Source: Thermococcus kodakarensis KOD1 (GTDB lineage: Archaea > Methanobacteriota_B > Thermococci > Thermococcales > Thermococcaceae). From it: DNA of 32,000 nt. A model generated the notes under the pieces. The model did no database searches, was not told where the DNA came from, and worked only from the letters and a program-made list of their open reading frames with translations. The number at the start of each line of letters is the position of its first letter. Position 1 is the first letter of the stretch. Positions 2,171-27,128 of this stretch are shown in pieces. The stretch spans positions 60,001 through 92,000 of the forward strand of contig NC_006624.1 in assembly GCF_000009965.1 (NCBI RefSeq), written 5' to 3'. The position numbers and the translations under genes were made by a program.

Positions 2171-2857
2171 TTTCTTTTTAGTGCCCCTTGGGCACTATAC
2201 GGTGAGAAAATCCTTTTGAATCAGGCCAATTGAAAGTAAAACCCCTCAAAAGTTAGCTCGTTAGAAACGCATACTCCTCTTCCGCCATCCGTTAAGGACG
2301 CTTGAACGACAGTGAAAGCGGCGCTGAAACTTTGCAAGCAAAGTTTCATCAAAGTTTGTGGTTCTTGTTTGACAGGTCTTTCGAGAGGATTTTCTTTTTG
2401 AATGCTGTCTTAGGTTGTGAATTCCACTTTTATCCGCTTGTTCTCTGTGAGTTTGCTTTTTAATTGACGCCCGTAGGGCGTCAAGGTGTTAGAAACTCCT
2501 TTTCAGCGGGCTGAAACTTAGAGGAATTCACTGATGTTTGGCTTGAGTATTTTGAAAATCCTTATAGTGGAGCAATTCTAAGAAGAACCACGAACTTTGA
2601 TCAAACTTCGCGAGGAAGCTTTTGTGAAAAGCTTACCAAAAGCTCGAATGTCTTCTTGAAGTTGGCTTGATGTAGCTAGATTCTCTGTGATAGATGAGTA
2701 GGGAAGTGCGGGTTTTCTTCTTTTTTAACGCCCTTCGGGCGTTATATTGTGAGTAAACCCTTGAGGATTGCCCAATTTATGGTGAGAATCACTGAAAAGC
2801 AGGACACTCAAAAAGGACATTCACTCTTTGATGAAACTTTGCTCTGCAAAGTTTCTA
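2171..2857. repeat. Three degenerate tandem units (~260-290 bp) of non-coding DNA, each with a T-run, a GC hairpin and a GAAACTTTGC-type palindrome
   Basis: Hairpins: 2180-2196 (agtgccc-ctt-gggcact), 2464-2484 (ttgacgccc-gta-gggcgtcaa), 2726-2744 (taacgccc-ttc-gggcgtta). Palindromes: 2325-2348 (11-bp arms), 2591-2610 (9/10), 2833-2855 (10-bp arms). A 26-bp inverted repeat matches 24/26 between 2341-2366 and 2583-2608. No credible ORF. Confidence 0.7.
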
Positions 2858-3724
2858 TGGTGGGCCCGCGGGGATTCGAACCCCGGACCTCCGCCGTGTG
2901 AGGGCAGTCTAAACGACTGTTGGGACACCTACAAAGGCCAGTTTGCCGAATGGCTCTCCCACAGAATAGCCAGAACCACAATGAAAGACTACATCAGCGC
3001 GCTCGAACGCTTTTTTGGTCGGCACACAATCAGAGACATCAAGGGGCTGAAAGTCTCGCTCCAGCAAGAGAACTACAACGAGAAGATCGTCAAGGGGCTG
3101 AGAAACTTCGTGAACTTCCTCCTCGACGAGGGCCTCATCAACGAGGGCACTGCGGCGCTCTTCAAGAAGCCGCTGACATTCAAGAGGGGAACACCAAGGC
3201 AGGTTTTCATCAGCAACGAGGAGCTACGTGAAGCCTACATCGAGCTGACAAAGCACTACGGCAAAGAGGCTGAGGTTCTCTTCAAGCTTCTGGCCTTCAC
3301 TGGCCTGAGGCTCAAGCACATCGTGAAGATGCTGAATACCTATGACCCTCAAAAGCTCGTCATCGTGAACGAGAAGGTCGCCAGGTACCCGATGGCTGAG
3401 CATGGCAAAGGAACGAAGAGGGCATTTTGGGCCTACATGCCGGCGGACTTTGCCAGGAGCCTTGAGCGGATGAGCATAACCTACTTCCAGGCGCAACCGA
3501 GGACGACTTACAAGAGGGTATCGGCATCTACAGTGAGGAAGTGGTTCTCAACCTTCCTTGCGCAGAGAAAAGTCTCGATGGAAGTCATCGACTTCATCCA
3601 GGGCCGCGCTCCTCGCTCAGTTCTAGAGCGGCACTACCTCAACCTGACGGTTCTCGCCGACGAGGCCTACGCGAAGGTGGTTGATGATCTTAGAAAGGTG
3701 TTGGAGGGGCAGACTCATGATTGA
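2828..3724 (+). CDS. int: SSV-type tyrosine integrase, C-terminal catalytic fragment Int(C); true element-derived coding starts within att at 2858
   Basis: The ORF reads through att as WWARGDSNPGPPPCEG and continues into a recombinase-like body: TGLRLKH (Arg), VRKWFSTFL, IQGRAPRSV, ERHYLNL (Tyr). The same 16 att codons end the Int(N) ORF at 26216-26263 in the same frame. Confidence 0.85.
   Translation: MMKLCSAKFLWWARGDSNPGPPPCEGSLNDCWDTYKGQFAEWLSHRIARTTMKDYISALERFFGRHTIRDIKGLKVSLQQENYNEKIVKGLRNFVNFLLDEGLINEGTAALFKKPLTFKRGTPRQVFISNEELREAYIELTKHYGKEAEVLFKLLAFTGLRLKHIVKMLNTYDPQKLVIVNEKVARYPMAEHGKGTKRAFWAYMPADFARSLERMSITYFQAQPRTTYKRVSASTVRKWFSTFLAQRKVSMEVIDFIQGRAPRSVLERHYLNLTVLADEAYAKVVDDLRKVLEGQTHD
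2858..2905. repeat. attL: 48-bp copy of the 3' part of tRNA-Val (anticodon stem to CCA)
   Basis: tggtgggcccgcggggattcgaaccccggacctccgccgtgtgagggc is identical at 2858-2905 and 26216-26263. The flanking bases differ on both sides. Confidence 0.95.
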
Positions 3725-4067: not shown

Positions 4068-4226
4068 TTTCTTTTGTTACAATGTATTTTAGCTTTCTTT
4101 TTTGTGAGTAACACGTTGAGAAGTCTCTTTCGCTCAAATCACTTCTCTCAAATTCATAGCAAGGCCGAGCCGGCAGGGCGGCCACGCCCGCGGCGATGAG
4201 GCCGCCGAGCAACCCTCCGGAGGGAT

Positions 4227-5993
4227 GTGGATGTGAGGTTTCGGAAAGCACTTGGGGTATTGGTAGTGGCTCTCTTTCTCGCGGCCCTGGCGGGCACGGC
4301 AAGCGCCGCAGAAACACATGTTCCTAAAATCGACTTGCCAAAGTGGGTCATCGTTCCAGAGGACTCAAGCTTCAGCGACGTGACGCTGTTCTGCGGGCTG
4401 GACGCGTACGATGCGAGCACGAACACGACACCTTGCTACTACAGCGGGACGCTGACGAATGCGACGATAGTGTTCAACACGACGACAGGATATCCGAAAC
4501 TGGTGACGGGCAAAATCGGGAATGCGTTTGAGTTCAAAACAGGAGCAGGAGTTTCCGGTTCAGCAACTCTTTCGTCGCAACAAATCACGATTGCATTGTG
4601 GTTCAAAGTCATAGACGACAGTGATCGCAACTACATCAGACTTTTTGATATAGGAGATTTGGCGATTGTATGGAGAAGTTCAGATAACAAAATATACGCA
4701 CAATGGATTTCTGAGAGTGGTGAAGGTAAGGCGTTTATTTCGCAGAGCTCGCTTGAACTTGGCAAGTGGTACTTTGCAACGTTTGTTTTGAGTTTTGATA
4801 CAGGAGAGTCATATATCTACATAGATGCAGATGTAGATGCTAGTACATCAATCACAGGGGGTTACACGCTGACGTCATCGACTTTCAAAATACATCCTGA
4901 TACGAATGGAGGGGATGTCATCGTTGACGAAGTGCGGGTTTACGACGGGAAAGCACTTTCACAGGACGAAGTCAACCTCCTCTACCTCGCCGGCCGCAAG
5001 AAGCTCTCCGAGCCCGCTTCATTCAGACAGATCTTCAGCCCGCTCATCGACCTCACTCGCGACCGTGCGACCTTCTACGCGGGGCTTGAGGTCAGCACGA
5101 CCGACCCGAGCGGCTACGTGCCCGTTCCTGAGAGCGCGGTCAACATGAGCATCACGAGCGCCGAGAAGCTCAAGAGCGACTACACCAACGCCGACTTTTA
5201 CTATCAGGGTCACTACTGGTACCGCGCCGACAAGATCCAGTTCAACTTGCCAATTCAGTTCGAGACCATCCGCACAAATGGCGACTTTGATGACGTCATA
5301 ATCCTTGACGAGGATCAAAAGACATACGTCTATGAGCGCGAGTTCAAAGTCACAAACCCAACCGGTGCAAAGCTGAACATCGTGTACTCCCTCGATCCAA
5401 CTGCGCTCGGTTTCTCCGTGCTCCAGTACCCACAGTTTGAACTTGACGGCGTCCGCATGGTTTCCTGGAGGCCTGATGAGAACTCAAGTCAGCTCTACCT
5501 CATCCGCACCGACACGCTTGAGCCCGGTGAGATCAGTACTCACTGGATCAGAAGTATCTGGACGCTCTCGAAAGAAGAGCTGAACTTCCCGGCGAAGCTC
5601 GAAGACTTTAGAAACATCCTCGACTGGCAGACTGCGCAGAAGATGGCCGAGAACGCCGTGAAAGGAAAAGCCGACACGTGGGTCAAGGTCATCAAGGTCT
5701 CAAGCAACGCTGACGTGAGCAACGTCACTATTTACGTGCCGCTCAAGGATGTCGAAGACACTAACGACGTCATTGAGGCCGTCGCCTTGACAGGCTCAAG
5801 AGAGACCCTGCAGGTCGAAGAGCTTGAGGACGGCACCATTGCGGTCAAGGTTCCAGCCGATGCATTTGTTTCTGGAGAAGCGGAAATCAAAGTCTTCTAC
5901 AACAAGGAAACCTCGTGGTGGAAGAGCATTCTGGACAGGATTATGGGCATGGTCAAGATGATCAAGAGCTTTTTCGGCTTTGGAGGTGGCTGA
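4227..5993 (+). CDS. Secreted LamG/concanavalin-A-like lectin-fold protein, 588 aa
   Basis: GTG start after ggaggg. Signal peptide MDVRFRKALGVLVVALFLAALAGTASA. LamG_3-like block: GKIGNAFEFK...ITIALWFKV...RLFDIGD...GKWYFATFV...IYIDA...DEVRVYDGKALSQDEVNLLY. Many N-x-S/T sequons. Confidence 0.85.
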   Translation: MDVRFRKALGVLVVALFLAALAGTASAAETHVPKIDLPKWVIVPEDSSFSDVTLFCGLDAYDASTNTTPCYYSGTLTNATIVFNTTTGYPKLVTGKIGNAFEFKTGAGVSGSATLSSQQITIALWFKVIDDSDRNYIRLFDIGDLAIVWRSSDNKIYAQWISESGEGKAFISQSSLELGKWYFATFVLSFDTGESYIYIDADVDASTSITGGYTLTSSTFKIHPDTNGGDVIVDEVRVYDGKALSQDEVNLLYLAGRKKLSEPASFRQIFSPLIDLTRDRATFYAGLEVSTTDPSGYVPVPESAVNMSITSAEKLKSDYTNADFYYQGHYWYRADKIQFNLPIQFETIRTNGDFDDVIILDEDQKTYVYEREFKVTNPTGAKLNIVYSLDPTALGFSVLQYPQFELDGVRMVSWRPDENSSQLYLIRTDTLEPGEISTHWIRSIWTLSKEELNFPAKLEDFRNILDWQTAQKMAENAVKGKADTWVKVIKVSSNADVSNVTIYVPLKDVEDTNDVIEAVALTGSRETLQVEELEDGTIAVKVPADAFVSGEAEIKVFYNKETSWWKSILDRIMGMVKMIKSFFGFGGG

Positions 5994-7399: not shown

Positions 7400-8974
7400 A
7401 TGAGGGCCCTTCCAGTGATTTCCATTATTTTCATTATGCTTCTTTCAACCCTCAGCGTTGCAGTAGCTGACAGCAGCTCCAACGAGACCATCAGCACGCC
7501 TGCTCTCGAAATGCCATCACTCACAATCTCAGACTATGTGAACAAGGCCCTTATCGCCTTCAAAGCCTGGCGCTTCGACTCAAAAGGCCTTATCAAGACA
7601 AACACAGGCATCTATGTCGACGAGAGGTTTTGGGACTGGCTTTCGGGTTCAATTCAGGAGAGTGCTAACCTCACCGATGCTGCCCTAAAGTGGGCTCAGG
7701 TCTTCCACCAGAAAGTCCAGAACGATGAGCCGATTCAGTGGATTTTCATCACCTGGACGAAGCCAAATGACCGGCTCAAGGAGGCACTTGAAGCCCTCGG
7801 TGCTGAGGTACTTTATGTTGATGACGACATCAATGCAATCTCACTCAAGGCAAGACCATCACTCATCAAAAACCTCGTTTACAGCCAGGCTTTTGACTTC
7901 GACTATAGGTTCTACATCCGCGAAGTTTGGCCCGACCTTTACGTCGAGACCGGCCCGACTATACTTGAGAACGAGACTACGTTCACGCCTGCCAACGTCA
8001 CGATAACTCCTGAACAGGTTTCCGGCGCAATCTGGAACATCAAGCTCGTTAAGGCTGACCTCGCCTGGAGTAAGGAAGGAATCACCGGCAAGGGCGTCAC
8101 GGTTGCGGTTCTTGATACCGGTGTGGACTGTGACCACGTGATGCTCCAGGGGGCTTGTGTGGGCTTTGAGAACTTTGTAACTGACGAGCCGGCAAAAGAT
8201 CTGAACGGTCATGGAACCCATGTAGCTGGCATTATCGCAGGAAGGCCTACTAAGGTTACTTGGGAAGGGAAAGAAGTTTATGTAAGCGGTGTTGCTCCCG
8301 AGGCCAACATTCTCGCGGTAAAGGTTCTCGGCCAGGACGGCGGCGGCACGATGACGCAGATCATCCAAGGCCTCGACTATGTTGTTGAGTGGAAAAAGAA
8401 GCACCCTGGCGAGCCGATAGTCATCTCAATGAGCTTGGGTTCCCCATTTGGAAGCCCAAGAGACCCAATGGTTCAGAAGGTCGAGCAGATCATCAGAGAG
8501 GAGCACATCCCGGTTGTCATCGCGGCCGGAAACGAGTTCGCGGTCATTGACAGTCCAGGCATAGCTACTGGAGCCATCACTGTGGCCGCGGTTGACAGGA
8601 ACATGAAGGTGGCATCTTTCTCAGGAAAGGGGCCGGGCCTGAACATCTACGACATCAAGCCCGACATCGCGGCTCCAGGAGTCAAGATACTAAGCGCCAA
8701 GGCCGGGACGAGAAACGAGTTCATAGCCATGAGTGGAACATCCATGGCAACTCCTCACGTGAGTGGCGTCGTGGCGCTGATTTTACAGAAGCACGGAGAC
8801 CTCACACCTGAGACGATCAAACTCATTCTCGAGAAGACGGCCTATCCGCTCGATGGCATTGACGCCCTGCCAACGTGGTCAGGAGCCGGAGTCGTTGATG
8901 CCTACGCCGCGGTCAAAGCCGAGCCAAGCGAAAGTGGAGGGCTCATCGACTTCCTCAGGAGGTTGCTCGGATGA
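7400..8974 (+). CDS. Subtilisin-like serine protease (S8 family) precursor with signal peptide and N-terminal pro-region
   Basis: Asp VAVLDTGVD, His NGHGTHVAGIIAG, oxyanion Asn AAGNE, Ser GTSMATPHVSGVVALI. N-terminal hydrophobic signal MRALPVISIIFIMLLSTLSVAVA. Confidence 0.92.
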   Translation: MRALPVISIIFIMLLSTLSVAVADSSSNETISTPALEMPSLTISDYVNKALIAFKAWRFDSKGLIKTNTGIYVDERFWDWLSGSIQESANLTDAALKWAQVFHQKVQNDEPIQWIFITWTKPNDRLKEALEALGAEVLYVDDDINAISLKARPSLIKNLVYSQAFDFDYRFYIREVWPDLYVETGPTILENETTFTPANVTITPEQVSGAIWNIKLVKADLAWSKEGITGKGVTVAVLDTGVDCDHVMLQGACVGFENFVTDEPAKDLNGHGTHVAGIIAGRPTKVTWEGKEVYVSGVAPEANILAVKVLGQDGGGTMTQIIQGLDYVVEWKKKHPGEPIVISMSLGSPFGSPRDPMVQKVEQIIREEHIPVVIAAGNEFAVIDSPGIATGAITVAAVDRNMKVASFSGKGPGLNIYDIKPDIAAPGVKILSAKAGTRNEFIAMSGTSMATPHVSGVVALILQKHGDLTPETIKLILEKTAYPLDGIDALPTWSGAGVVDAYAAVKAEPSESGGLIDFLRRLLG

Positions 8975-12764: not shown

Positions 12765-13340
12765 GTGGTAGTGGGAAACTCATCAAAAGGGTTAGTGGAG
12801 AGTATAGATGTCATTATAGAGCGCTCTAAGAACGCCAAACTTACGCCAGAGAAGAAGTACATTGACATAGCTAAGACAGTCGCCAAGAAGGCCGAGGCAA
12901 CAGAAAAGGAAGCCAGGGGACTGCCGAACATCTACGTCACCAGGAAGCTCGAGCTCGCCTTCGAAACCATCGAGCGCCTGAAAGAAGCCCTCGAGTATGC
13001 ATTTAAAGGCATCTATTCTGGCGAGGACGTTGAAGAGAAAATCAACTCGATGAGGCGCGTTTTTGGAAGGAAAGCCCACCTGAGGACGAAGATCCTCATG
13101 ACACTACTAATCCATGGAGAGATGAAGTCCCAAGATATTGCAAAGATACTCAGAAAGGACGAATCAACAATCAGCAAGGCGATGAAGTTCCTTCTCCTCG
13201 AGGGCTACGTGGTGAGGGGTGAGAATGGACTAAAGCTCCGGCCAGGGATTGAAGACGCCTTGTGGGAGCTTTTCGACGACATCTTCGGCCAGCTCGAGGA
13301 GATACTTCTTGAGCAGACCCTGGAGGGAGCGGATGAATGA
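12765..13340 (+). CDS. Winged-helix (ArsR/MarR-like) DNA-binding protein, 191 aa
   Basis: GTG after aagggggt. The C-terminal RTKILMTLLIHGEMKSQDIAKILRKDESTISKAMKFLLLEGYVVRGENGLKL has a wHTH pattern. Confidence 0.7.
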   Translation: MVVGNSSKGLVESIDVIIERSKNAKLTPEKKYIDIAKTVAKKAEATEKEARGLPNIYVTRKLELAFETIERLKEALEYAFKGIYSGEDVEEKINSMRRVFGRKAHLRTKILMTLLIHGEMKSQDIAKILRKDESTISKAMKFLLLEGYVVRGENGLKLRPGIEDALWELFDDIFGQLEEILLEQTLEGADE

Positions 13341-14644
13341 GAGCGAACCTCGAGGAGATCTGGCCCCGGGACGTGCTGGAGGAAGACTTGCAGAGATATG
13401 AAGAAAAAACTTCATATTCAGAGAACCCGCTCCTGACCTTTGGCCTCACCAAAAGGGGCAAACTCGCCTATCCTCTGAGCGGCCCAAGCCACAGGCTCAT
13501 AATGGGGCAGACTGGAGCCGGAAAGACGACCCTCGCCCAAACACTGATGGAAATCGACTTCCTGAGGGGCCGCAAGGTCTTCGAAATAGAACCCGCGCTT
13601 GAGGCCAAATCAGAGCGAGCTTTCATGAACCTCCCCAACAACGACAGCAGGATGCGCCGAGTCCTGCTCGAAAAGTTCGGGATTGATATTGAGGACCTCA
13701 ATGAGTGGCCATTCAGGGCCGTTGTGTACAGCCCTGCGACGCCGAGATTCATCAACTTCCTCCAGAAGTACGAGAACCATCCAGGAATAGAGTTCTTCAA
13801 GCCGCTAACCTTCACCGAGGCCGACCTGATTGACATCATCGCGAGGACGCTCCCAACAGGCTCGATTGAGGGCCTGATCGTTGCCGATGCATATGACCAG
13901 TACGTCAACACAGTCAAGAAGCGGAAGAAGAGGAACATCGAGGAGTTCAAGAACTACGTCAAGGAGATCGGAGAAGGGACAAACGTCAACATAGACAACA
14001 CACTCATGAAGATCAACCGCTTCTACCATGTCCTGAAAGGGCTGGAAGTCGAGAACGGGGTTACTCTCAACGAGATGATGAAGAACCCAAAGGAGATCAG
14101 CGTCTTCACAACACACTTCATCGAGAGGCCTGAAGACCGATACATATGGACCTTTGCAATACTCGTCACGGTGTACTCAAACTGGATCGGCAACCTCAAG
14201 CGCGACTACCTCATGAGCTTCTTCGTCGCCGATGCAAACCTCCTCGCTCCAAGTTCACCAAGAGATATCATCGAGAAACTTTCCTACTTCCAGACTCTCA
14301 TGAGGCAGGAACTTCAGATCTACGTGAAGATCTCCCGTGGAAAGAATATGGCCTGGACGCTTGACACACAGAGACATGACGATCTAAGCCCGAGCATCGT
14401 CAGCGAGTGCAAGGAGTGGTTCGTCAAGAGGATGTATGCTCGGGAATTCGCCCAAAAACTTGGGGTTGAGCCGAGGCTTCTGAGGACGCTCTCAATAGAG
14501 AAGGCAATCTACGTCGGGCCGCTGACAAAGTACAAAGTGCTCCTACGGCCCCCAATTTCCCGCAAAGCCGCGGCTGGAGAGTACGCACCAATCCACTTCT
14601 TAGATGCTTATGAGGGGTGGGAGAATGAGGAAGCTAACTTTTAG
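13337..14644 (+). CDS. HerA/FtsK-superfamily P-loop ATPase, 435 aa
   Basis: Walker A IMGQTGAGKTT. Candidate Walker B LMSFFVADANLLAP. HerA-like C-terminal motif WTLDTQRHDDLSPSIVSEC. ATGA-coupled to the wHTH gene. Confidence 0.8.
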   Translation: MRANLEEIWPRDVLEEDLQRYEEKTSYSENPLLTFGLTKRGKLAYPLSGPSHRLIMGQTGAGKTTLAQTLMEIDFLRGRKVFEIEPALEAKSERAFMNLPNNDSRMRRVLLEKFGIDIEDLNEWPFRAVVYSPATPRFINFLQKYENHPGIEFFKPLTFTEADLIDIIARTLPTGSIEGLIVADAYDQYVNTVKKRKKRNIEEFKNYVKEIGEGTNVNIDNTLMKINRFYHVLKGLEVENGVTLNEMMKNPKEISVFTTHFIERPEDRYIWTFAILVTVYSNWIGNLKRDYLMSFFVADANLLAPSSPRDIIEKLSYFQTLMRQELQIYVKISRGKNMAWTLDTQRHDDLSPSIVSECKEWFVKRMYAREFAQKLGVEPRLLRTLSIEKAIYVGPLTKYKVLLRPPISRKAAAGEYAPIHFLDAYEGWENEEANF

Positions 14645-15761: not shown

Positions 15762-16026
15762 ATGGCTCCTATACATCTCCCTCGCCCTTGGTTTTTGGCT
15801 CATCTATGAGATAGCAAAGGACAAAGTCCGCGGGCCCGGACGCTACTGGATCACCCTCAACGTCGAGGGAGACGCCGAGCGCGTTGAGTACCTCATCAAG
15901 CAACTCGCAAAGGACCAGAAGATCAAGATCCGCAGTTTCAAAATCAGCGCCGAAAAGCCTTCCACATCAAAGAGGAAAAAGTTTTTTGGACAAACCACTA
16001 AAAAAGAAGAGGTGGATTCAAAATGA
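15754..16026 (+). CDS. Small membrane protein with basic C-terminal tail, 90 aa
   Basis: ATG at 15754 after aggaggagg. MFEWLLYISLALGFWLIYEI followed by a Lys-rich tail. Confidence 0.6.
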   Translation: MFEWLLYISLALGFWLIYEIAKDKVRGPGRYWITLNVEGDAERVEYLIKQLAKDQKIKIRSFKISAEKPSTSKRKKFFGQTTKKEEVDSK

Positions 16027-17459
16027 AGCGGCTAGCCGCCTTTCTCCTTTTCCTCCTCGCTGGTACCATGGTGCCGGCCGGGATAGTGGGAGCTGAACAG
16101 CAACTCGTCACAACCTTTCAAGTAACAGCTGGCAAGACCTGGACAAAGGAAATCCCTGGCGCCATCGTGAACTGGACTGGCACATTTGACTACTCAAAAA
16201 GAGACGGGTGGGAAGCAGCTTTCTCGGTTTACTTTACAGAGACGGGCAACACTCATGGGGTCGCGGCAACCGAAAACGGCTTCGTTGACGCAGACGGGAA
16301 ATACATTTGGTTCCTTAAGAACGTCCAGACTGAAGACAATCCTGAAACCAGGGAGCTTGGCGTTCTTGAGAGTTGGCATGAGCTCGTCGTGAAGTTCATT
16401 GATCCCCTGAGTGGAAAAGTTGTCATAGACAACGACTACAATGGCGAAACATACACCCTCTATGTTGGAGATGAAATAGACATCTCGGGAGAGCTTGCCG
16501 ATGCCTGGCGTGAGAAAACTATTCTTGAGCTGAGGAGCATAGAAACCAGCCTCTTCGGCTCCAAGGCCGTCCTCATACTCCAACACATCACAGCCGTTAG
16601 CGGAACGGTGGAGATCTATCCATACCAAGAGCAGACTTCGGAGCCAAACTCACCAAACGAGAACCAGACCAACGAGACTACACCTCAAAAACCCCTCATC
16701 GACCCGGCGAAAGTTCCGGCGGTGATGATCGTCGTCGGTGAACACGCGGCGGGGGCCGACGTGGCGGCGGGTGCCAAGGTCGGCATAGCAGTCCAGAAGT
16801 GGATTGACATCATCAAGGAGAAAGGTGCCGAGTTTGCCATTCCAGGACTCGGCCACCTTGGAGGCCTCATCGCCAAGGCAGTAACTGCGCCAGTCCAGAA
16901 CCTCAACGCCGATGCTATGCTCGACAGTGAGGTCAAAGATCCTGACAGAATAGCACCCATCGTTTACACTGTCGGCGGGCCGGTTGCCAACGAGTACACC
17001 AAACTGATCCTCGAGAAGAACGCCGACAGACTACCAGTCAAATTCATCAAAGAGAACGGCAAATGGTACATCAAGGACAGAAAAGGTAACAAATGGGACA
17101 ATGGCTACGGCATCATCCTCATAATCCCCGCCTCCGAGAATCCAGCTGAGCTTCAGATAAGGCTCATGAACGGAAAAATCAAGATGGCCGACGTCGTCGT
17201 GGCGGGAACCGACAGAGTCGGCACATACGCCGCCTGCGAACTCCTCCAAGGCGAGTTCTTGAAGCCGCTCCTCGGAGAAAAACCAAAACCAGAACTCGAG
17301 TATTTCCTCCAGCTTCAGGGGAGAATGCTCCTTCTCTTCGGCCAGAACCCGCTCGAGGCCTTCGACGTGAACCTCGACCCAACCAACCCATTCAAGTTCC
17401 AGGTTACCGCCGTGATAGTGGACAAAGATGGAAGAATAGTCAAGGTCATAGTAGGCTGA
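16023..17459 (+). CDS. Secreted protein, 478 aa, with a C-terminal S-layer-like domain (tentative)
   Basis: Signal MKRLAAFLLFLLAGTMVPAGIVGA. Thr/Asn/Pro linker. Then AVMIVVGEHAAGADVAAGAKVGIA...IVYTVGGPVANEYT...ADVVVAGTDRVGTYAACELL, which recalls the VVG..A..D..AA / VGGP..N / AGtdR..T..AA pattern of archaeal S-layer protein domains (from memory). Confidence 0.75.
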   Translation: MKRLAAFLLFLLAGTMVPAGIVGAEQQLVTTFQVTAGKTWTKEIPGAIVNWTGTFDYSKRDGWEAAFSVYFTETGNTHGVAATENGFVDADGKYIWFLKNVQTEDNPETRELGVLESWHELVVKFIDPLSGKVVIDNDYNGETYTLYVGDEIDISGELADAWREKTILELRSIETSLFGSKAVLILQHITAVSGTVEIYPYQEQTSEPNSPNENQTNETTPQKPLIDPAKVPAVMIVVGEHAAGADVAAGAKVGIAVQKWIDIIKEKGAEFAIPGLGHLGGLIAKAVTAPVQNLNADAMLDSEVKDPDRIAPIVYTVGGPVANEYTKLILEKNADRLPVKFIKENGKWYIKDRKGNKWDNGYGIILIIPASENPAELQIRLMNGKIKMADVVVAGTDRVGTYAACELLQGEFLKPLLGEKPKPELEYFLQLQGRMLLLFGQNPLEAFDVNLDPTNPFKFQVTAVIVDKDGRIVKVIVG

Positions 17460-19046: not shown

Positions 19047-19249
19047 CGCCGGAGGCTGCAGAGTTAGTGGACAAATCACTAAGTCTAAGCCCGTTTAGCA
19101 ACTTTACAGTATTTACCCAAGACGCTTCGGCCCTTTTGCTTCTTATTAGCCTAGCAGTACTGATAGGCACAGTAATATATCTCTGGAAGAACGGACTGCT
19201 CTACGAGTACATCATATACTACCTACTCCCCGGACAGTATTCTTGTTAG
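19043..19249 (+). CDS. Small membrane protein, 68 aa
   Basis: ATGA overlap with the upstream stop; one TM helix, ALLLLISLAVLIGTVIYLW. Confidence 0.55.
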   Translation: MTPEAAELVDKSLSLSPFSNFTVFTQDASALLLLISLAVLIGTVIYLWKNGLLYEYIIYYLLPGQYSC

Positions 19250-19497
19250 GGTTAACCGCGGCAGTTCTGCCTTTCGTGATACTTTGTGCTCTCCTCGGAG
19301 CTGTGGGGTTCATAATAGGGATTCCAGTAGGGCTTGCACTAGACCTGATCCCACCACTCTGGTACAAGGCAAGGCTCACAAGCTTGCCAATGGCTCTACT
19401 CTGGATCATTGCAGTAGCCCTTACGAGCCTGATCTCTCTCGGCATATTTGTTGACGCTTGGTTCTTCACAAACGTTGCAGGGGGAGATCTTTGGTGA
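19243..19497 (+). CDS. Small membrane protein, 84 aa (~3 TM; TTG start uncertain)
   Basis: Overlaps the upstream stop; hydrophobic throughout. Confidence 0.5.
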   Translation: MLGLTAAVLPFVILCALLGAVGFIIGIPVGLALDLIPPLWYKARLTSLPMALLWIIAVALTSLISLGIFVDAWFFTNVAGGDLW

Positions 19498-19752
19498 GTG
19501 ACGTCTCGATGGGGGGCCGAGGCTCATCTCTTCCTTCGTTTTCCATTTTTTGATAGGACTTGTTTTGAAATAGGGGGGAATAGTAAAAGTCGTGGCGGGT
19601 TGAAAACCCCTTCCTTTTTGATTTATAAACTCGTTGAGAATATGACCGCAAGTGCGCCCGGGAAGGTGCAAAATTTCGCAACCTTTTTTAGATGAACACC
19701 TCTAGCAGGATACCAGAGTATATACATAATATATGAGTAGGAGTTGAGGCCA

Positions 19753-20130
19753 ATGCCAGACCAGGACACCAGCAAAGCCAGAGTCGCCGAGCCGCTAGCG
19801 AAATTTCATGCCAGGTTGGACAGGGACGGGAGGGTCACTATTCCACGTCACGTTAGGACAGTATTTCACATCAACAAAGATGATTATATCAAAGCAACCA
19901 TCCGGCGCGTTTATGTTGATCTCGGGTTAAAAACTATCTTCATCCTCGGGGAAGATACAGGGGTCATTATGAGGGTGGGGCGTGGAGGGATGGTAACGAT
20001 CCCTCAGAAAGTCCGTGAGGAGCTCCAACTTGATCCTGGTGATTTAGTTGAAGTCATTATTGAAAATGTATTCAAACTGAAAACTGGATATGAACGAGAG
20101 TTCAGGTACGTGAGAGAAACCAAAAAGTGA
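19753..20130 (+). CDS. Tandem AbrB/SpoVT-domain DNA-binding protein (two swapped-hairpin domains in one chain)
   Basis: ATG at 19753 downstream of tatatacataatatat. Two copies of the motif: DRDGRVTIPRHVRTVFHINKDDYIKATI and GRGGMVTIPQKVREELQLDPGDLVEVII. Confidence 0.75.
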   Translation: MPDQDTSKARVAEPLAKFHARLDRDGRVTIPRHVRTVFHINKDDYIKATIRRVYVDLGLKTIFILGEDTGVIMRVGRGGMVTIPQKVREELQLDPGDLVEVIIENVFKLKTGYEREFRYVRETKK

Positions 20131-20180
20131 TCACTTCTTCACAATGATGTATAAGTAAGCGCTGTTCTGTACCCAAAAAC

Positions 20181-20246
20181 CTTATATATTGTTGGTGCTT
20201 ACAAATTAACGGTAAAAATTACCGTTTCGGTAAAATATACCGCAAG
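20181..20246 (+). promoter_or_regulatory. Promoter of the RHH-MCM operon with two adjacent CGGTA..TACCG palindromic operators
   Basis: TATA-like ttatatat at 20182-20189. Palindrome 1 at 20208-20226 is aacggtaa-aaa-ttaccgtt (8-bp perfect arms). Palindrome 2 at 20228-20242 is cggta-aaata-taccg. Confidence 0.55.
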
Positions 20247-20255
20247 GTGGTCGGA

Positions 20256-20429
20256 ATGGGGCGTGAAGATTGGGAATACCTGCCGGTGAAAAAAGCCACG
20301 AGAACAACTGTCGAGAAACTTAGAGCCCTACTGATTCTCCAGAGGGGTGAGAAACTCACCTATGACGACACAATCCGCTACCTGCTCCAGTTTCTGCCTT
20401 CTGAGATCAAGGCGCAAATAGAGGGATGA
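20256..20429 (+). CDS. Ribbon-helix-helix (CopG/Arc-like) small regulator, 57 aa
   Basis: ATG after aggtgg. EYLPVKKATRTTVEKLRALLILQRGEKLTYDDTIRYLL fits a beta-alpha-alpha pattern. Its stop lies 3 nt before the MCM ATG. Confidence 0.6.
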   Translation: MGREDWEYLPVKKATRTTVEKLRALLILQRGEKLTYDDTIRYLLQFLPSEIKAQIEG

Positions 20430-20432
20430 AGC

Positions 20433-23177
20433 ATGAGTGAGGACATCAATTTTGACTTCGCGTGGAAGTTCCTCATTGGACTAATCCAAAACGGCAAGAC
20501 AGAGATGAAAGTATCGACCCTACCCAACTCGCTTCAGAAAGTAGCCAAGTCCATCGGGTATGAGGATGATGACACAGTCCCACTTCTCACACTCAAGGAG
20601 TACCTTGAAAAGACTTGGGGACATATATCCCCAAATCCTCAAGTCCCCAAGAGTCCCCAAGAAGGTTGGGGACAATTAGAACCAGAGTCCCCAAGTCCCC
20701 AAGAAGATTCACCAGTTGATGAAAGTCTTGGGGACTCTGACGAGAGTATAATTTCAGAAATAACTCCATATCTTGAAGCAATACAAAGAGTTGTCACTGA
20801 TGCTGATAGAACAGAGAAACGTCTGGCAATCTATCTCCTCTTGAAGAACGGGGAGATGTATGATCCTGATCTCCGCAAGGAACTTGCTCCATTGGGTCAG
20901 TATTTCTCCAAGAACAAGGAACCGTACAAGGTCAAAACGATCAAGAATGTAATCTCCTTCGTCCGTAACTCTCCGCACGTCTGGTCGAGCAAGGACCCGA
21001 CGACGGGTATGTTTGTTTACCGCCTGAAGGACGAGACTGTTAAAGCCATCCTTCAAGAGCTTCAGATGGTTCTCCAGGAGCGTGAGGTTCTCCAGAAACA
21101 GGAGGAACTTAAGCAGGCGGATGAGGAGAAGCTGGTCAGGGCTTTCTTTGACTTCTTCATGAACTACGTGGAGGACGGCAAGCACGTGTTCCTCGACCAG
21201 CTCAGGAATCTCCTGGTCCTCGGAGAGGACAGGGGTCTGAGGGTGGACTGGCATGTCCTCGACGCGGTGAACCCGAGCCTCGCTGAGCGGCTCATCAACG
21301 AGCCCGATGTTGTCATCTCGGCCGCAGAGAAGGCCGTCCTGGAGGTCCTGAATGAGCCTGAGTTCATGCTCTATGAGGAGCGCCCGAGGATCCACGTCCG
21401 CTTTGTGAACCTGCCGAAGACGATCAGTCCTCGTGCCGTGAGGAGTGAGCACATCGGCAGGCTTGTCCAGGCCAGGGGCGTCGTCTCAGCAATCGCTGAG
21501 GGGGAGAAGAGCAATGGCGTGAAGGGCTTCATCGAGAAGGCTGTTTTTGTGTGTCCTAAGTGTGGGTATGAGGTTTCTCTCCTCCAAAAGCCGTATGAGA
21601 ATTTTGTTGTCCCAAAGGAGTGCCCGGCGTGTGGGGCGAGGCTGAGTGCTGACAACTTGAGCGTTGAGAAGAGTACTGTTATAGACATGAGAGAGATTTT
21701 TGTCCAAGACCCCTCTGATGCCCTCCACGCGGCAGGGACTGCCTCTTATGTGAGAGTGATTCTCCTCGACGACAACGCGAGGATGGACGTGAACCCTGGC
21801 GACGAGGTCCTCATCACTGGTGTGGTCAGGGGCATCATGAGGAAGAAGAACGGGAAGCCTGCTCTTGGGTGGGTGCTTGAGGCCAACTCTCTCACGAAGT
21901 TGACGAAGGACATCGAGGACCTTGAGATAACCCCTGAGGACGTTCAGAAGTTTCAGGATATGGTGAAGGATCCGGAGTTTGACTCGAAACTCATCCGCTC
22001 CCTCGCGCCGGCTATCACTGGCAGGGAGGTTGAGAAAAAGGCCGTCCTGCTGGCGCTCTTTAGCGGGGAGGACTATGACATCACCGGAACTCATGTGAGG
22101 AAGCGCTCTCACGTTCTCCTCTTTGGAGATGCAAGTACTGGAAAGTCGGAGATCATCAGGCACGCGGCTCAGATCGCTCCTGGTGGGGTCCACTCCACAG
22201 GAACCCATAGCTCTGGAGTTGGCCTAACCGCTGCTATTGATTCGATGGATGGAGTGAGGGTTCTCAGGGCTGGCGTCCTCGTACTGGCCGACCGCGGCGT
22301 TGCGGCCCTGGATGAGCTGGACAAGATGAGGGAGGAGGACTATGATAAGATGCTCGATGCTCTTGAGCAGGGCTGGTTCCCGTACAATAAGGCCGGCTTC
22401 AATACGAGGCTTATGGCGAGGGCTGTTGTGATAGCGGCGGCCAACCCGCCGGGGGGAGAGTTTGACAGGCACAATTATAAGCCGTTTGATGAGCTTAAGC
22501 GCCTGTTTGACCAGCCGTTTTACAGCCGTTTCGATTTAATCATCCCGACGTTTAGGAATACTGAGGATTCTGTTTTGGAGGAGATTGCTGATGCAGTTTT
22601 GGATAAGCATGAGGGGAAGATTGAACCGCCTTATGATTCTGAGCTTCTCACCAAATTCATTGCTTATGCTCGCCGTGAGATCCCGCGTGTAGTCCTTCCT
22701 CAGGCCTTGAGAGGAGTCATGAAGAAGTATATGGTTGACCTTGCAAAGGCGATAGGTTCTGCCGCGCCGAGGGCTATGGAGGCCATTATCAGGCTCACCG
22801 AGGCCCACGCGAGGATGCACCTTAGAAAGGAGGCCACTCTTGCTGATTTTCTCGCGGCTAAGGAGCTGTTTGATGAGATGATTACGCGCCTCGCCGGTTC
22901 ATCTGACGAGGAAGAAAAGGAGGAGGTGATGAAGGGGCTGGCGGGTGTCATCTGGACCGAGGAGAAGAAGAGGAAGGTGGACAAGCTCTGGAGCATTCTG
23001 AAGTACTATGAGGCCCTGGACGAGCGCGGTGAGGGTGTCCACATCAACGACATAATCGAGGAGGCGGAGCAGCAGGGGATTGAGCGGAGCGAGGTTTTGG
23101 TTCTTCTGGAGGATATGGAGCGGGCGAATATGGTTGAGCAGTCTAAGCCCGGCTTTTACCGCTTGAGAAGGAGGTGA
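20433..23177 (+). CDS. mcm: MCM-family replicative helicase, 914 aa, with a ~250-aa N-terminal extension and a C-terminal winged helix
   Basis: Zn ribbon CPKCGYEV...CPACGARL. Walker A LLFGDASTGKSEII. Walker B VAALDELDKM. Sensor 1 VIAAANP. Arg finger SRFDLI. C-terminal wHTH VHINDIIEEAEQQGIERSEVLVLLEDMERANMV. Confidence 0.93.
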   Translation: MSEDINFDFAWKFLIGLIQNGKTEMKVSTLPNSLQKVAKSIGYEDDDTVPLLTLKEYLEKTWGHISPNPQVPKSPQEGWGQLEPESPSPQEDSPVDESLGDSDESIISEITPYLEAIQRVVTDADRTEKRLAIYLLLKNGEMYDPDLRKELAPLGQYFSKNKEPYKVKTIKNVISFVRNSPHVWSSKDPTTGMFVYRLKDETVKAILQELQMVLQEREVLQKQEELKQADEEKLVRAFFDFFMNYVEDGKHVFLDQLRNLLVLGEDRGLRVDWHVLDAVNPSLAERLINEPDVVISAAEKAVLEVLNEPEFMLYEERPRIHVRFVNLPKTISPRAVRSEHIGRLVQARGVVSAIAEGEKSNGVKGFIEKAVFVCPKCGYEVSLLQKPYENFVVPKECPACGARLSADNLSVEKSTVIDMREIFVQDPSDALHAAGTASYVRVILLDDNARMDVNPGDEVLITGVVRGIMRKKNGKPALGWVLEANSLTKLTKDIEDLEITPEDVQKFQDMVKDPEFDSKLIRSLAPAITGREVEKKAVLLALFSGEDYDITGTHVRKRSHVLLFGDASTGKSEIIRHAAQIAPGGVHSTGTHSSGVGLTAAIDSMDGVRVLRAGVLVLADRGVAALDELDKMREEDYDKMLDALEQGWFPYNKAGFNTRLMARAVVIAAANPPGGEFDRHNYKPFDELKRLFDQPFYSRFDLIIPTFRNTEDSVLEEIADAVLDKHEGKIEPPYDSELLTKFIAYARREIPRVVLPQALRGVMKKYMVDLAKAIGSAAPRAMEAIIRLTEAHARMHLRKEATLADFLAAKELFDEMITRLAGSSDEEEKEEVMKGLAGVIWTEEKKRKVDKLWSILKYYEALDERGEGVHINDIIEEAEQQGIERSEVLVLLEDMERANMVEQSKPGFYRLRRR
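20614..20735. repeat. Cluster of eight GTCCCCAAG-type 8-9-mers in both orientations inside the mcm 5' region
   Basis: Direct GTCCCCAAG at 20643, 20653, 20687 and 20695. A near copy tccccaaa at 20628. Inverted (C)TTGGGGAC at 20614, 20666 and 20727. The direct copies are read in all three codon phases. Confidence 0.7.
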
Positions 23178-25414: not shown

Positions 25415-25430
25415 AAATGAGGTGAGAAAC

Positions 25431-25949
25431 GTGGTGAAACCCTTCGCATGGGACAAAGGCCTCGACTATGAGAAAACCTATCGACAGATCCTCAACCACT
25501 ATCGCCAAGCCACCCGTGACACATCCAAAGCCTACGACATCATACTCCTGACTCAACTCCGCAACGGCTCCAGGCTCACCGAGGCCATCAACTTCCTCAA
25601 AAAGCTCATTGAAGAAAAGCCCTTCAAGCGCCAGAAGTACATCAAAGTCGAAAAGCGGAAAGACGGCTATGAAAGGCTCATGGTTCTTCCAGAGGAAATT
25701 GATAAGAAAGAGCTGATGAGGGTCTCCTACGTCATCAAAGAGGCCAACAAGTGGAAGGTCTCAACCTATTGTAAAAGGACCTACGGGTTCAACACCCACG
25801 CCTTGAGGTATGCACTAATATCATATCTATCTCAGAAAGGCGTTGCTCCACAGCTTATAGCAAAGATTACCGGCCACAAGACGCTCGACTACATTCTATA
25901 CTACACCCAACAGCAGAAGGCAGAAGAGCTTCTCAAGGACCTGAGGTGA
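25431..25949 (+). CDS. Minimal (catalytic-domain-only) tyrosine recombinase, ~172 aa
   Basis: GTG at 25431/25434 after gaggtga (track start 25422). Arg NGSRLTEA, H-x-x-R THALRYALIS, GHKTLDYILYYT (His/Tyr). Only ~45 aa precede the first Arg, so there is no core-binding domain. Confidence 0.75.
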   Translation: MVKPFAWDKGLDYEKTYRQILNHYRQATRDTSKAYDIILLTQLRNGSRLTEAINFLKKLIEEKPFKRQKYIKVEKRKDGYERLMVLPEEIDKKELMRVSYVIKEANKWKVSTYCKRTYGFNTHALRYALISYLSQKGVAPQLIAKITGHKTLDYILYYTQQQKAEELLKDLR

Positions 25950-26008
25950 TGCCGCATGCATATATATCATAATACTCTATATGACCTCGGTGATAAAGAG
26001 TGGGACAA

Positions 26009-26263
26009 ATGGGCAAAGTGGCCACTCCTGAACGCGGCTCTCACACAGCCCAAAAGCCAGAAAAGAAGCGAAAGACAAGGCTCCACATCACGCTTGATGA
26101 AGATGTCGGCGAAGTTCTTGACAGGCTGTACATCAGAAAGTCTCAGTTCATCAACGACCTGCTCAGAATCATTCTTTTTGGGGAGGGGGACGTTATGAGC
26201 TTTTTAGAATCGTTGTGGTGGGCCCGCGGGGATTCGAACCCCGGACCTCCGCCGTGTGAGGGC
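26009..26263 (+). CDS. int: SSV-type integrase N-terminal fragment Int(N) with RHH-like segment; joins 2906..3724 in the circular form (357 aa)
   Basis: ATG at 26009 downstream of atatatatcataatactctatat. RLHITLDEDVGEVLDRLYIRKSQFINDLLRIIL is RHH-like. It ends with the att-encoded WWARGDSNPGPPPCEG in the same frame as Int(C). The ORF-track extension to 26422 is read-through into the tRNA. Confidence 0.75.
26216..26263. repeat. attR: 48-bp att copy forming the 3' part of the intact tRNA-Val
   Basis: Identical to 2858-2905. Confidence 0.95.
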
Positions 26264-26293
26264 GGCGTCATAACCAGTCTAGACCACGGGCCC
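26216..26293 (-). tRNA. tRNA-Val (anticodon CAC), 78 nt with encoded CCA
   Basis: The reverse complement is GGGCCCGUGGUCUAGACUGGUUAUGACGCCGCCCUCACACGGCGGAGGUCCGGGGUUCGAAUCCCCGCGGGCCCACCA. Acceptor stem GGGCCCG/CGGGCCC. Anticodon stem CCGCC/GGCGG with loop CUCACAC. T arm CGGGG-UUCGAAU-CCCCG. Confidence 0.92.
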
Positions 26294-26333
26294 GCCCGAA
26301 GTAGTGAAAGGGTGGGAAAATATAAAGCTTTCG

Positions 26334-27128
26334 CTAAACTTCTTCGAGTATCTTCTCGGGTGCTCCAGCGAACTCCACCAGGTATTCTGCCTCAACTATG
26401 TGAAGCCTGCCTGGGACGATAAGGACGTGGGGCTGTCTTCCGAAGTCCTCGTTTATGAGCTCCCTGACGTAGCCGGCCCTCAGAGTCGGCTCAAGCGAAC
26501 CAGCCCTCGCTAAGACGACAACGAGAGTCTCAGGGGTGAACACTCCTTCACCTTTCATTTCCTCGACTTTGAGAAGTATCTCCATCGCTTCATTGGCCGT
26601 CATGTAGCGGTTCTGGTCTGCCTTGATGTCGAGGAACAGAAGCGTGTGGAGACCCCTTTCTTTGTTATCCCTTATCACGTCGTAGTGGCTCGTCGGGAAC
26701 CAGTTCTTCTCGGGATAGGCAACGGTAGCGCTCTTCCCGAACTTGTATATCTGAAGACCGGTGATTGCCACCGCGGAGTAAATGCTTGGAGCGTGGATAA
26801 CGTAGCTCTTAACTCCAGCTTTCTTTGCCCTTATCCTGAGGTCTGAGTGAGTAGTTGCCACCATCGGGTCTCCGGCGGTTAAAAACGCAACGTCTTTGTC
26901 CTTAGCCTCGGGAAGAACTATTCTCTCGAAGTTCAGCTCAACATCCTCCCTGCTGAGTCGAACTATCGGCTTGCCGATGAGCTCCTCAATTTTCTCAAGG
27001 GTGGTACCTGCTAAAAGGGAAGTGTAGAACTCAGCGAAGACTTTATCACACCTTCTCGCCGTTTCCAGTCCCTTGAGTGTGATGTCCTTTTCATCGTAAA
27101 GCCCAAGCCCAATGAAGTACAGCACCAT
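26334..27128 (-). CDS. dphB: Diphthine synthase
   Basis: MVLYFIGLGLYDEKDITLKGLETARRCDKVFAEFYTS...GDPMVATTH...YVIHAPSIYSAV...KFGKSATVAYPE is near-colinear with Pyrococcus diphthine synthase as I remember it. The start is taken at the MVLYF ATG (27128) rather than 27140. Confidence 0.92.
   Translation of the reverse strand: MVLYFIGLGLYDEKDITLKGLETARRCDKVFAEFYTSLLAGTTLEKIEELIGKPIVRLSREDVELNFERIVLPEAKDKDVAFLTAGDPMVATTHSDLRIRAKKAGVKSYVIHAPSIYSAVAITGLQIYKFGKSATVAYPEKNWFPTSHYDVIRDNKERGLHTLLFLDIKADQNRYMTANEAMEILLKVEEMKGEGVFTPETLVVVLARAGSLEPTLRAGYVRELINEDFGRQPHVLIVPGRLHIVEAEYLVEFAGAPEKILEEV

Follow-up and report, generated by a model that had tools for sequence, protein, structure and literature searches.

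How the MCM helicases of mobile elements reach DNA without Orc1/Cdc6 has been an open question. The mcm gene of the provirus TKV1 of Thermococcus kodakarensis KOD1 has an array of one short DNA word embedded in its coding sequence. The stretch analyzed here (hereafter the window) comprises 32,000 nucleotides of the KOD1 genome (NC_006624.1, positions 60,001 to 92,000) and carries TKV1; the primer TK80127-80146 corresponds to window positions 20127-20146, the window position being the KOD1 position minus 60,000 (Pan et al., 2011, PMC3239210). The gene, TK0096 or MCM1, lies at 20433-23177 on the plus strand and encodes a protein of 914 aa with the Pfam domains MCM_N, MCM_OB, MCM, lid and WH, identical to BAD84285.1 / WP_011249051.1 of T. 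kodakarensis KOD1. Based on the comparisons in this work, we propose that the array consists of iterons read by the N-terminal winged-helix (wH) domain of the MCM itself, and we consider it probable that elements of this type, represented by TKV1 and by Thermococcus prieurii virus 1 (TPV1), start their replication and load the MCM at this array.

The cluster at 20614-20735 is real and is a signal at the DNA level. The 9-mer GTCCCCAAG/CTTGGGGAC occurs there in six perfect copies, at 20614(-), 20643(+), 20653(+), 20687(+), 20695(+) and 20727(-), and GTCCCCAAG is found nowhere else in the window (expected count 0.33; none of 100 shuffles reached six). Two near copies accompany them, GTTGGGGAC at 20665/20666(-), which matches at 8 of 9 positions, and ATCCCCAA at 20627/20628(+); the eight copies counted in the preliminary description are these six perfect and two near ones. 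Taken as the 8-mer GTCCCCAA, the word has seven perfect copies within 122 bp and none elsewhere in the window, and the 7-mer TCCCCAA has eight copies in the cluster and six elsewhere. The largest pile-up of any 8-mer per 150 bp was 2-4 in 100 first-order Markov versions of the window, versus the seven observed, and 20614-20735 is the sole k-mer cluster in the 32 kb.

Comparison with the orthologs resolves this iteron-like array into a plan of ten sites, < >>>> < >>> < (>, direct; <, inverted), two of which are degenerate in the window. Site 1 (20615-20622, minus strand) is an inverted GTCCCCAA and forms a divergent dyad, TTGGGGAC-ATAT-ATCCCCAA, with site 2 (20627-20634, plus strand), where ATCCCCAA has one mismatch; the dyad ttgggg-acatatat-ccccaa noticed earlier at 20615-20634 was correct on re-reading. 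Site 3 (20635-20642, plus) is the degenerate ATCCTCAA and is the positional ortholog of site 3 in the contig L002 and in TPV1, which also begins with A. The perfect word GTCCCCAA then occupies site 4 (20643-20650, plus), site 5 (20653-20660, plus) and, inverted, site 6 (20666-20673, minus), with sites 5 and 6 forming a convergent dyad, GTCCCCAA-GAAGG-TTGGGGAC. It recurs at site 7 (20687-20694, plus), site 8 (20695-20702, plus) and, inverted, site 10 (20728-20735, minus), while the position of site 9 (20706-20713, plus) reads GATTCACC, the site being lost in the window and kept in L002, TPV1, L004 and L008. As a separate observation, a perfect 13-nt inverted repeat, CAGAGTCCCCAAG / CTTGGGGACTCTG, at 20683-20695 and 20727-20739 extends 4 nt past the word at sites 7 and 10, and the equivalent flanks in L002 are not complementary.

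The copies use both strands and all three codon phases. Relative to the open reading frame (ORF) 20433-23177, the direct copies at sites 4, 5, 7 and 8 were recomputed to lie in phases 0, 1, 2 and 1 and to encode VPK, SPQ, ESP and SPQ, exactly as first described, and the inverted copies translate as WG, WG and LGD. Tandem Repeats Finder returns periods of 8 and 10, neither of which is a multiple of three. Codon choice is bent to the same end: Gln is encoded by CAA in 4/4 cases inside the array, whereas the remainder of the gene uses CAA 5 times and CAG 18 times, and CCG serves for 0/8 Pro codons inside versus 19/37 outside, so the synonymous codons within the array are dictated by the word. The earlier reading of a DNA signal rather than a peptide signal is borne out by these codons that the word forces and by the orthologs, whose peptides are unrelated and whose arrays are kept.

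The placement of the array in the protein-coding plan is equally informative. The TK0096 protein has 235 residues ahead of the MCM core, which then follows the order MCM_N (aa 236-326), OB, P-loop, lid and C-terminal WH domain. The N-terminal extension has no sequence match in Pfam, PHROG or the PDB, and an AlphaFold2 model of aa 1-235 from a 4-sequence alignment (mean pLDDT 79) predicts a small alpha/beta domain at aa 4-62 (20442-20618, plus; pLDDT ~85-89), a disordered linker at aa 63-101 (20619-20735, plus; pLDDT 29-44) and a wH domain at aa 103-200 (20739-21032, plus; pLDDT 91-96). In this model the wH domain has the topology H1-S1-H2-H3-S2-S3, with H1 at 127-139, H2 at 144-158, H3 at 167-179 and the wing at 183-198, and continues into a long helix at 200-234. 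The codons covered by the array are those of aa 61-101 and thus coincide with the disordered stretch between two confidently predicted domains, in agreement with the previous suggestion that the word is tolerated within a flexible linker. As the encoded tether is predicted to be disordered over ~40 residues, a DNA signal is free to use either strand and whichever codon phase.

This arrangement is shared by the whole family. The N-terminal extension is rare, with 8 representatives at E <= 1e-3 among 1.84 billion proteins, and DNA was obtained for 11 orthologs, including TPV1, two JGI metagenome contigs and further contigs from Logan, ENA, NCBI and JGI. An array lies in the linker-coding part in 11/11 of the orthologous extensions with DNA, and it is the top k-mer cluster in every contig, including the complete TPV1 genome. 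All follow the shared spacing plan '< 12 > 8 > 8 > 10 > 13 < 21 > 8 > 11 > 22 <', that is, a run of four and a run of three direct sites, separated and flanked by single inverted sites. In TPV1 (L001, NC_016899; 21570-21592 + 1-300 and 388-2917) the MCM is annotated as two genes, gp01 and gp02, the 5′ end of mcm being frameshifted relative to L004, and a 96-codon AbrB-like ORF immediately upstream on the plus strand is unannotated. Also as side observations, L011 (GCA_013154295.1, JAADCS010000122.1) is a 4-kb contig in a 'Thermotogae bacterium' metagenome-assembled genome that encodes an archaeal-virus-type MCM with the array, and this contig is probably mis-binned; L007 has a palindrome, TCCAGTG-CATC-CACTGGA, at 517-540, directly 5′ of its array, where chance may account for it and which we take to resemble the core of the origin recognition box (ORB) element of Pyrococcus/Thermococcus. 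Two scans of genome contigs and the viral-contig scans with P0005, P0007 and P0010 returned nothing, blastn against plasmids gave no match, and word-pair pattern scans of IMG/VR gave 240 unrelated loci, none of them encoding the wH domain in question.

The plan is constant, but the word is specific to the lineage. Nine different words occur among the 11 sequences, namely GTCCCCAA in TK0096, TTCCCCAA in L002, TTTCCCAA in TPV1, TGCATCAA in L004, TTCACCAA in L007, TGTCCCAA in L008 and L009, GTTTCCAA in L010, GTATCCAA in L011 and GTTCCCAA in L012 and L013, and their only constant part is the 3′ CCAA (TCAA in L004). Sites are 0.78-0.95 identical within one element and 0.40-0.81 identical at orthologous positions between elements. 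Site 3 starts with A in three elements, a site-specific deviation inherited in place, which indicates that the sites have changed in parallel at fixed positions and not by wholesale conversion. The linker peptides are unrelated between elements, as with WGHISPNPQVPKSPQEGWG in the window and LDANASVHQCINMHQGAGG in L004. Equivalent clusters are therefore present where the peptide diverges, for example of TGCATCAA in L004 and of TTCACCAA in L007, and orthologs keep neither the peptide nor the word itself, but an array of a lineage-specific word. The iteron-like, protein-binding nature assigned to the repeat in the preliminary description is supported as far as it can be computed, while the origin function is what we infer.

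A comparable arrangement was seen in the plasmid pTN3 (L006, KF527230.1), which belongs to a different virus-like family and whose MCM core is 29% identical to that of TK0096. Its array of GTTCAAA/TTTGAAC at 4086-4175 on the minus strand, with the plan > 11 < 9 < 40 < 14 > 9 >, corresponds to aa 79-108 of the MCM; of just two 7-mer clusters found in the 18-kb plasmid, it is the one with more copies. Homology of the N-terminal extensions of pTN3 and TK0096 was considered and not adopted, the BLASTP similarity being not significant (E = 0.18), and the pTN3 array therefore counts here as an analog only. With the pTN3 N-terminus as query, a single spurious locus (L014) came up among viral contigs and one short match among homologous proteins.

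The protein residues that change along with the word were sought by co-variation. In an alignment of the 11 extensions, 158 variable ungapped columns were scored for association with the word (adjusted Rand index, ARI, with family-wise permutation P). Setting aside the linker residues encoded by the words themselves, the best word-associated columns are 171 and 172, two adjacent residues that both lie on the predicted recognition helix H3 (167-179), their codons for K171 and N172 standing at 20943-20948 on the plus strand. Residue 171 is associated with word positions 1-2 (ARI 0.91, family-wise P = 0.001), its states being K,N,A,R,A,R,R,K,K,K,K: words that begin with GT have K, those that begin with TG have R, and TT comes with N or A. 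Residue 172 is associated with word positions 3-4 (ARI 0.81, P about 0.02), its states being N,N,K,N,N,K,K,Y,M,K,K: where the word has CC or CA at these positions the residue is N, and it is K for TC, Y for TT and M for AT. Concordant sequence pairs number 53/55 for residue 171 and 51/55 for residue 172. The pairings recur in separate clades, R171/TG in L004 and in L008/L009, K171/GT in TK0096 and in L010-L013, and K172/TC in three clades; moreover, L013 as a whole resembles L011 (0.77) more than L012 (0.60), but its word and its KK pair are those of L012.

The closely related pair TPV1 and L004 tells the same story. Along mcm the two are ~90% identical, interrupted by two troughs in which identity falls close to random, one covering the array together with the first wH helix and loop (L004 aa 60-135) and the other the H2-turn-H3 segment (aa 151-185), so that this pair looks like a natural specificity swap and agrees with a wH reader. 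The mini-domain at aa 1-62 was rejected as the specificity determinant, as it is ~90% identical in TPV1 and L004 despite their different words. Taken together, the sequences suggest that the reader of the word is most likely the N-terminal wH domain of the MCM itself. To the best of our reading, the family-wide array, its lineage-specific words and the two-residue pattern pointing to the winged helix of the MCM appear to be new here.

On these grounds a mechanism can be outlined. The sites are placed in the gene stretch that codes for the tether between two folded domains. The H3 helix of the wH domain would read the word, with residues 171 and 172 specifying positions 1-4 and conserved residues reading CCAA, and the wH domains of several MCM subunits could fill the direct and inverted sites. 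Sites so occupied would concentrate the MCM on double-stranded DNA and orient it both ways, and rings could assemble without Orc1/Cdc6. The adjacent AT-rich 65 bp would then melt, and host GINS, primase and polymerases would be recruited. The candidate unwinding element is a patch of 66% AT at 20736-20800, directly 3′ of site 10 (48% in the window), which is weak evidence; L002 has a similar patch. A site inside the initiator gene would stay together with its reader through the exchange of replication modules between viruses, and a private pair of word and reader in each lineage would in turn confer replicon specificity. More tentatively, and at somewhat less than even chances, Thermococcales viruses and proviruses may possess a self-contained MCM replicon cassette, in which a replicative helicase of the archaeal/eukaryotic type locates its own origin and loads itself there without Orc1/Cdc6 by means of its tethered wH domain, and a two-residue code (171, 172) yields private, mutually orthogonal and re-programmable pairs of origin and helicase.

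Several observations are in line with an origin at this place. No Orc1/Cdc6 domain was found in the scanned ORFs of the element, and the ORB core, which we take to be TTCCAGTGGAAA, occurs at chance level and is absent near the array; for an MCM that lacks an Orc1/Cdc6 partner, a docking array is most simply both the origin and the loading site. The array is the sole cluster of its word in each complete element. In TPV1 the detrended cumulative GC skew has its minimum at 775, within 225 bp of the array at 429-550, and on the TKV1 circle, where all genes lie on one strand, a GC-skew trough at 18.9-21.3 kb includes the array. A 2026 preprint on Thermococcales viruses reported that they lack both Orc1/Cdc6 and ORBs, noted the N-terminal wH extension and put forward the hypothesis that the MCM wH domain recognizes the origin, with no DNA site named (PMC12934983); its text and supplement make no mention of iterons or repeats in the mcm gene, and no paper describing the array was found in a literature search.

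Other observations weigh against the proposal. The co-variation draws on 11 sequences, with a word alignment chosen by the analyst, and the wH fold is weakly backed by Foldseek, where MarR-family wH proteins rank at the top and Orc1/Cdc6 chains also appear, all of them weak (best E = 2e-3, with no match at E < 1e-3). The upstream genes also differ between TPV1 and L004, which leaves room for a second reader. The AT-rich patch is modest and is missing from TPV1. The exact skew minimum of TKV1, at a low resolution, falls at 19473, 1.1 kb upstream in intergenic DNA, and GC skew in TPV1 and pTN3 is confounded by gene orientation. Recombinant MCM1 formed no hexamers and had minimal helicase activity, and deletion of the MCM1 N-terminal extension had no detected effect (Pan et al., 2011, PMC3239210). 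Marker-frequency analyses of KOD1 derivatives revealed no secondary origin (PMC11409957, PMC5663688), a result in keeping with a dormant provirus that lends an active origin no support; as integrated in KOD1, the system probably lies dormant.

Among the alternatives, the main rival accepts that the MCM wH domain binds the array and sees in it an operator for autoregulation or copy control, acting as a roadblock on mcm transcription, by titration or by 'handcuffing', and not an origin. Iteron-plasmid initiators commonly autoregulate through their repeats. The true origin would then lie upstream in AT-rich, repeat-poor intergenic DNA, at ~19.05-19.74 kb or 20.13-20.25 kb, and the skew minimum at 19473 as well as the 150-bp segments with the highest AT content near the module, 20058-20207 and 19598-19747, speak for such a place, as do the predicted origins of Thermococcales plasmids, which are mostly intergenic (PMC6972569); the predictions for these plasmids considered intergenic DNA rich in repeats. 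However, that upstream intergenic DNA has no copy of the word at <=1 mismatch, and as each complete element has the word in one cluster only, a wH-guided MCM has no other address than the array. Furthermore, the array lies 180-300 bp inside the ORF and not at a promoter, and phage lambda offers a precedent for an origin within an initiator gene (PMC7466680). We therefore regard a purely regulatory array as unlikely, and regulation of this kind could coexist with an origin function.

A second alternative, which we hold to be more doubtful, is that another protein of the element reads the array, be it the AbrB-fold protein or the product of the small ORF upstream of mcm, and that the array is a regulatory, a centromere-like partition or a genome-packaging signal. 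Precedents exist in the 7-8 bp repeat arrays bound by the ribbon-helix-helix (RHH) proteins omega, ParG and MetJ and in the pac hexamers inside pacA of P1, and the 8-bp spacing of adjacent sites here resembles RHH arrays. The AbrB/MazE-fold gene (19744-20130, plus; PF04014, E = 7.8e-13) has counterparts upstream in L004, TPV1, L007 and L012, and TPV1 and L004 differ in their upstream genes as they do in the word. The small ORF of 60 codons (20247-20429, plus) stands directly upstream of mcm and outside the array; it was labeled 'RHH' earlier, a fold that is unverified, as it has no Pfam or PHROG match and its structure model is of low confidence. Homologs of this ORF are present in L002 and L004 and absent from TPV1 and L007, which keep their arrays, so an RHH protein is not encoded with every array, and its promoter has palindromes of its own that are unlike the array word; as a reader it is disfavored. 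In addition, the array travels with the mcm gene and not with structural genes, the array of pTN3 is accompanied by another upstream gene, and the co-variation points to MCM residues 171 and 172. The small upstream ORF and the AbrB protein are thus less likely readers than the wH domain of the MCM.

A third possibility is that the copies serve to build three hairpins, either of the mRNA or of single-stranded DNA once it is unwound, the changes between lineages then being compensatory co-variation of base pairs. The segment 20600-20750 does fold into three hairpins, with z = -6.1 for RNA and z = -6.0 for DNA, and the inverted copies are complementary to the direct ones in every lineage, but hairpins arise automatically wherever words are inverted. 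Three direct copies would suffice for pairing, yet identity is maintained in 6-7; Rfam gave no match, stems as short as 8-9 bp are marginal when the host grows at ~85 C, and the co-variation with residues 171 and 172 would go unexplained, all of which makes this possibility very improbable. Finally, a functionless by-product, whether a low-complexity SP/PQ-rich peptide repeat or tandem DNA generated by slippage, might be suspected from the Ser/Pro/Gln-rich linker and the short tandem units of periods 8 and 10, but it is effectively refuted already by the three phases, the two strands, the periods that are not multiples of 3, the ortholog peptides that are wholly different while the plan is kept in 11 lineages, and the deviations inherited in place, such as the A that starts site 3; the codon phases, the two strands and the unrelated ortholog peptides likewise rule out a peptide repeat as such.

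Seen as iterons read by the initiator itself, the array finds its closest analog in the lambdoid phage origin, an analog and not a member of the same family. Lambdoid phages have matched specificities of iterons and O protein that differ between phages. As in lambda, the array lies within the initiator ORF, here in the part coding for an interdomain linker, and in lambda the DNA-binding domain of O reads the iterons. The lambda iterons, with an AT-rich tract after them, occupy the central part of the initiator gene O, where extra iterons add residues away from the DNA contact (PMC7466680). However, O, which is no helicase, brings in DnaB by way of P, and its iterons are 19-bp, internally symmetric and present in 4-6 copies, whereas TK0096 has 8-bp words in ~10 copies in both orientations and would be an initiator that is itself the replicative helicase. 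Homology to lambda O was not found, Pfam detecting only MCM domains in TK0096.

The SV40 large T antigen and the papillomavirus E1 protein likewise unite an origin-binding domain and a hexameric replicative helicase in one polypeptide, and at their origins short words in opposite orientations orient two hexamers. TK0096 similarly unites a predicted wH domain (aa 103-200) with the MCM core, its sequence specificity being suggested by the co-variation, and the SV40-like analogy for MCM1 was already drawn by Pan et al. (2011, PMC3239210). The viral proteins differ in being superfamily 3 (SF3) helicases with another fold of the origin-binding domain and intergenic origins of 4-6 pentamer or hexamer sites; TK0096 has an MCM (AAA+) core instead of an SF3 core, a winged helix, and sites inside the gene. 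In iteron plasmids (pPS10 RepA, F RepE, R6K pi), a repeated word is read by the wH domain of the initiator, in private pairs of word and Rep. The likeness to them is that the word is clustered far beyond chance and that its specificity co-varies with its own initiator, and the difference is that their iterons are 17-22 bp, mostly direct and intergenic, and that Rep is no helicase and the replicons are bacterial.

With the Orc1/Cdc6-ORB system the proposed arrangement would share a winged helix that reads inverted origin repeats around an AT-rich region, and the N-terminal wH of viral MCMs was reported to be structurally similar to the Orc1 WH domain (PMC12934983). However, the element has no orc1/cdc6 gene, the ORB core is not enriched, the words are 8-bp and lineage-specific, and the wH domain is fused to the helicase. 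In the satellite phage P4, the alpha protein is a fused primase-helicase with its own DNA-binding domain that recognizes 8-bp direct and inverted repeats, the ori/crr octamers. P4 differs in belonging to another helicase family, in being a bacterial replicon and in having two separate site clusters, and we know of no description that places these clusters within a linker-coding part of the gene.

Around the mcm gene, the 23.4-kb TKV1 is delimited by a 48-bp perfect direct repeat, at 2858-2905 (the left att repeat) and 26216-26263, together with an SSV-type integrase fragment. The right repeat is formed by the 3′ 48 nt of a tRNA-Val(CAC) gene at 26216-26293 on the minus strand, and the split integrase, whose C-terminal part lies at 2828-3724 (Phage_integr_3, E = 1.6e-61), is as expected after SSV-type integration. 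An ORF at 26000-26422 crosses the right att site, and a second short integrase-like fragment stands at 25422-25949. The cargo of TKV1 (4227-5993, 7400-8974, 13337-14644 and 16023-17459) includes a ConA-like lectin-domain protein, also present in TPV1, a subtilase, a HerA-like ATPase with a weak DUF87 match under the curated Pfam cut-off and an S-layer-like-domain protein. Upstream of the AbrB gene, the ~700-bp stretch at 19047-19743 is probably non-coding, contains the skew minimum at 19473, has no notable repeats and offers another possible position for an origin. Two palindromes stand in the promoter region of the small ORF, CGGTAAAAATTACCG and CGGTAAAATATACCG, at 20210-20242; these 15-nt units stand 18 bp apart between a TATA-like box (~20183-20192) and the ORF, their counterparts in L004 are TAGGAACGATG and TAGGAACGGTG at 2460-2488, and they resemble an operator through which a small DNA-binding protein would regulate its own gene.

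In conclusion, the array in the mcm gene is probably, as judged from its sequence, the long-missing replication origin of this archaeal virus family. It supplies a concrete candidate target of ~120 bp and a predicted protein-DNA recognition code for MCM helicases that have no Orc1/Cdc6 to guide them, and it sits in a genetically tractable archaeon for which strains with His-tagged MCM1 (PMC2962436) and deletion strains exist, so that the hypothesis is directly testable. Origins in such elements can escape searches that are limited to intergenic DNA. If the proposal is true, the array would be the first defined origin of an MCM-based archaeal virus or plasmid replicon and a natural case of MCM loading without ORC, and it would provide compact, orthogonal replicons on which hyperthermophile vectors can be built.

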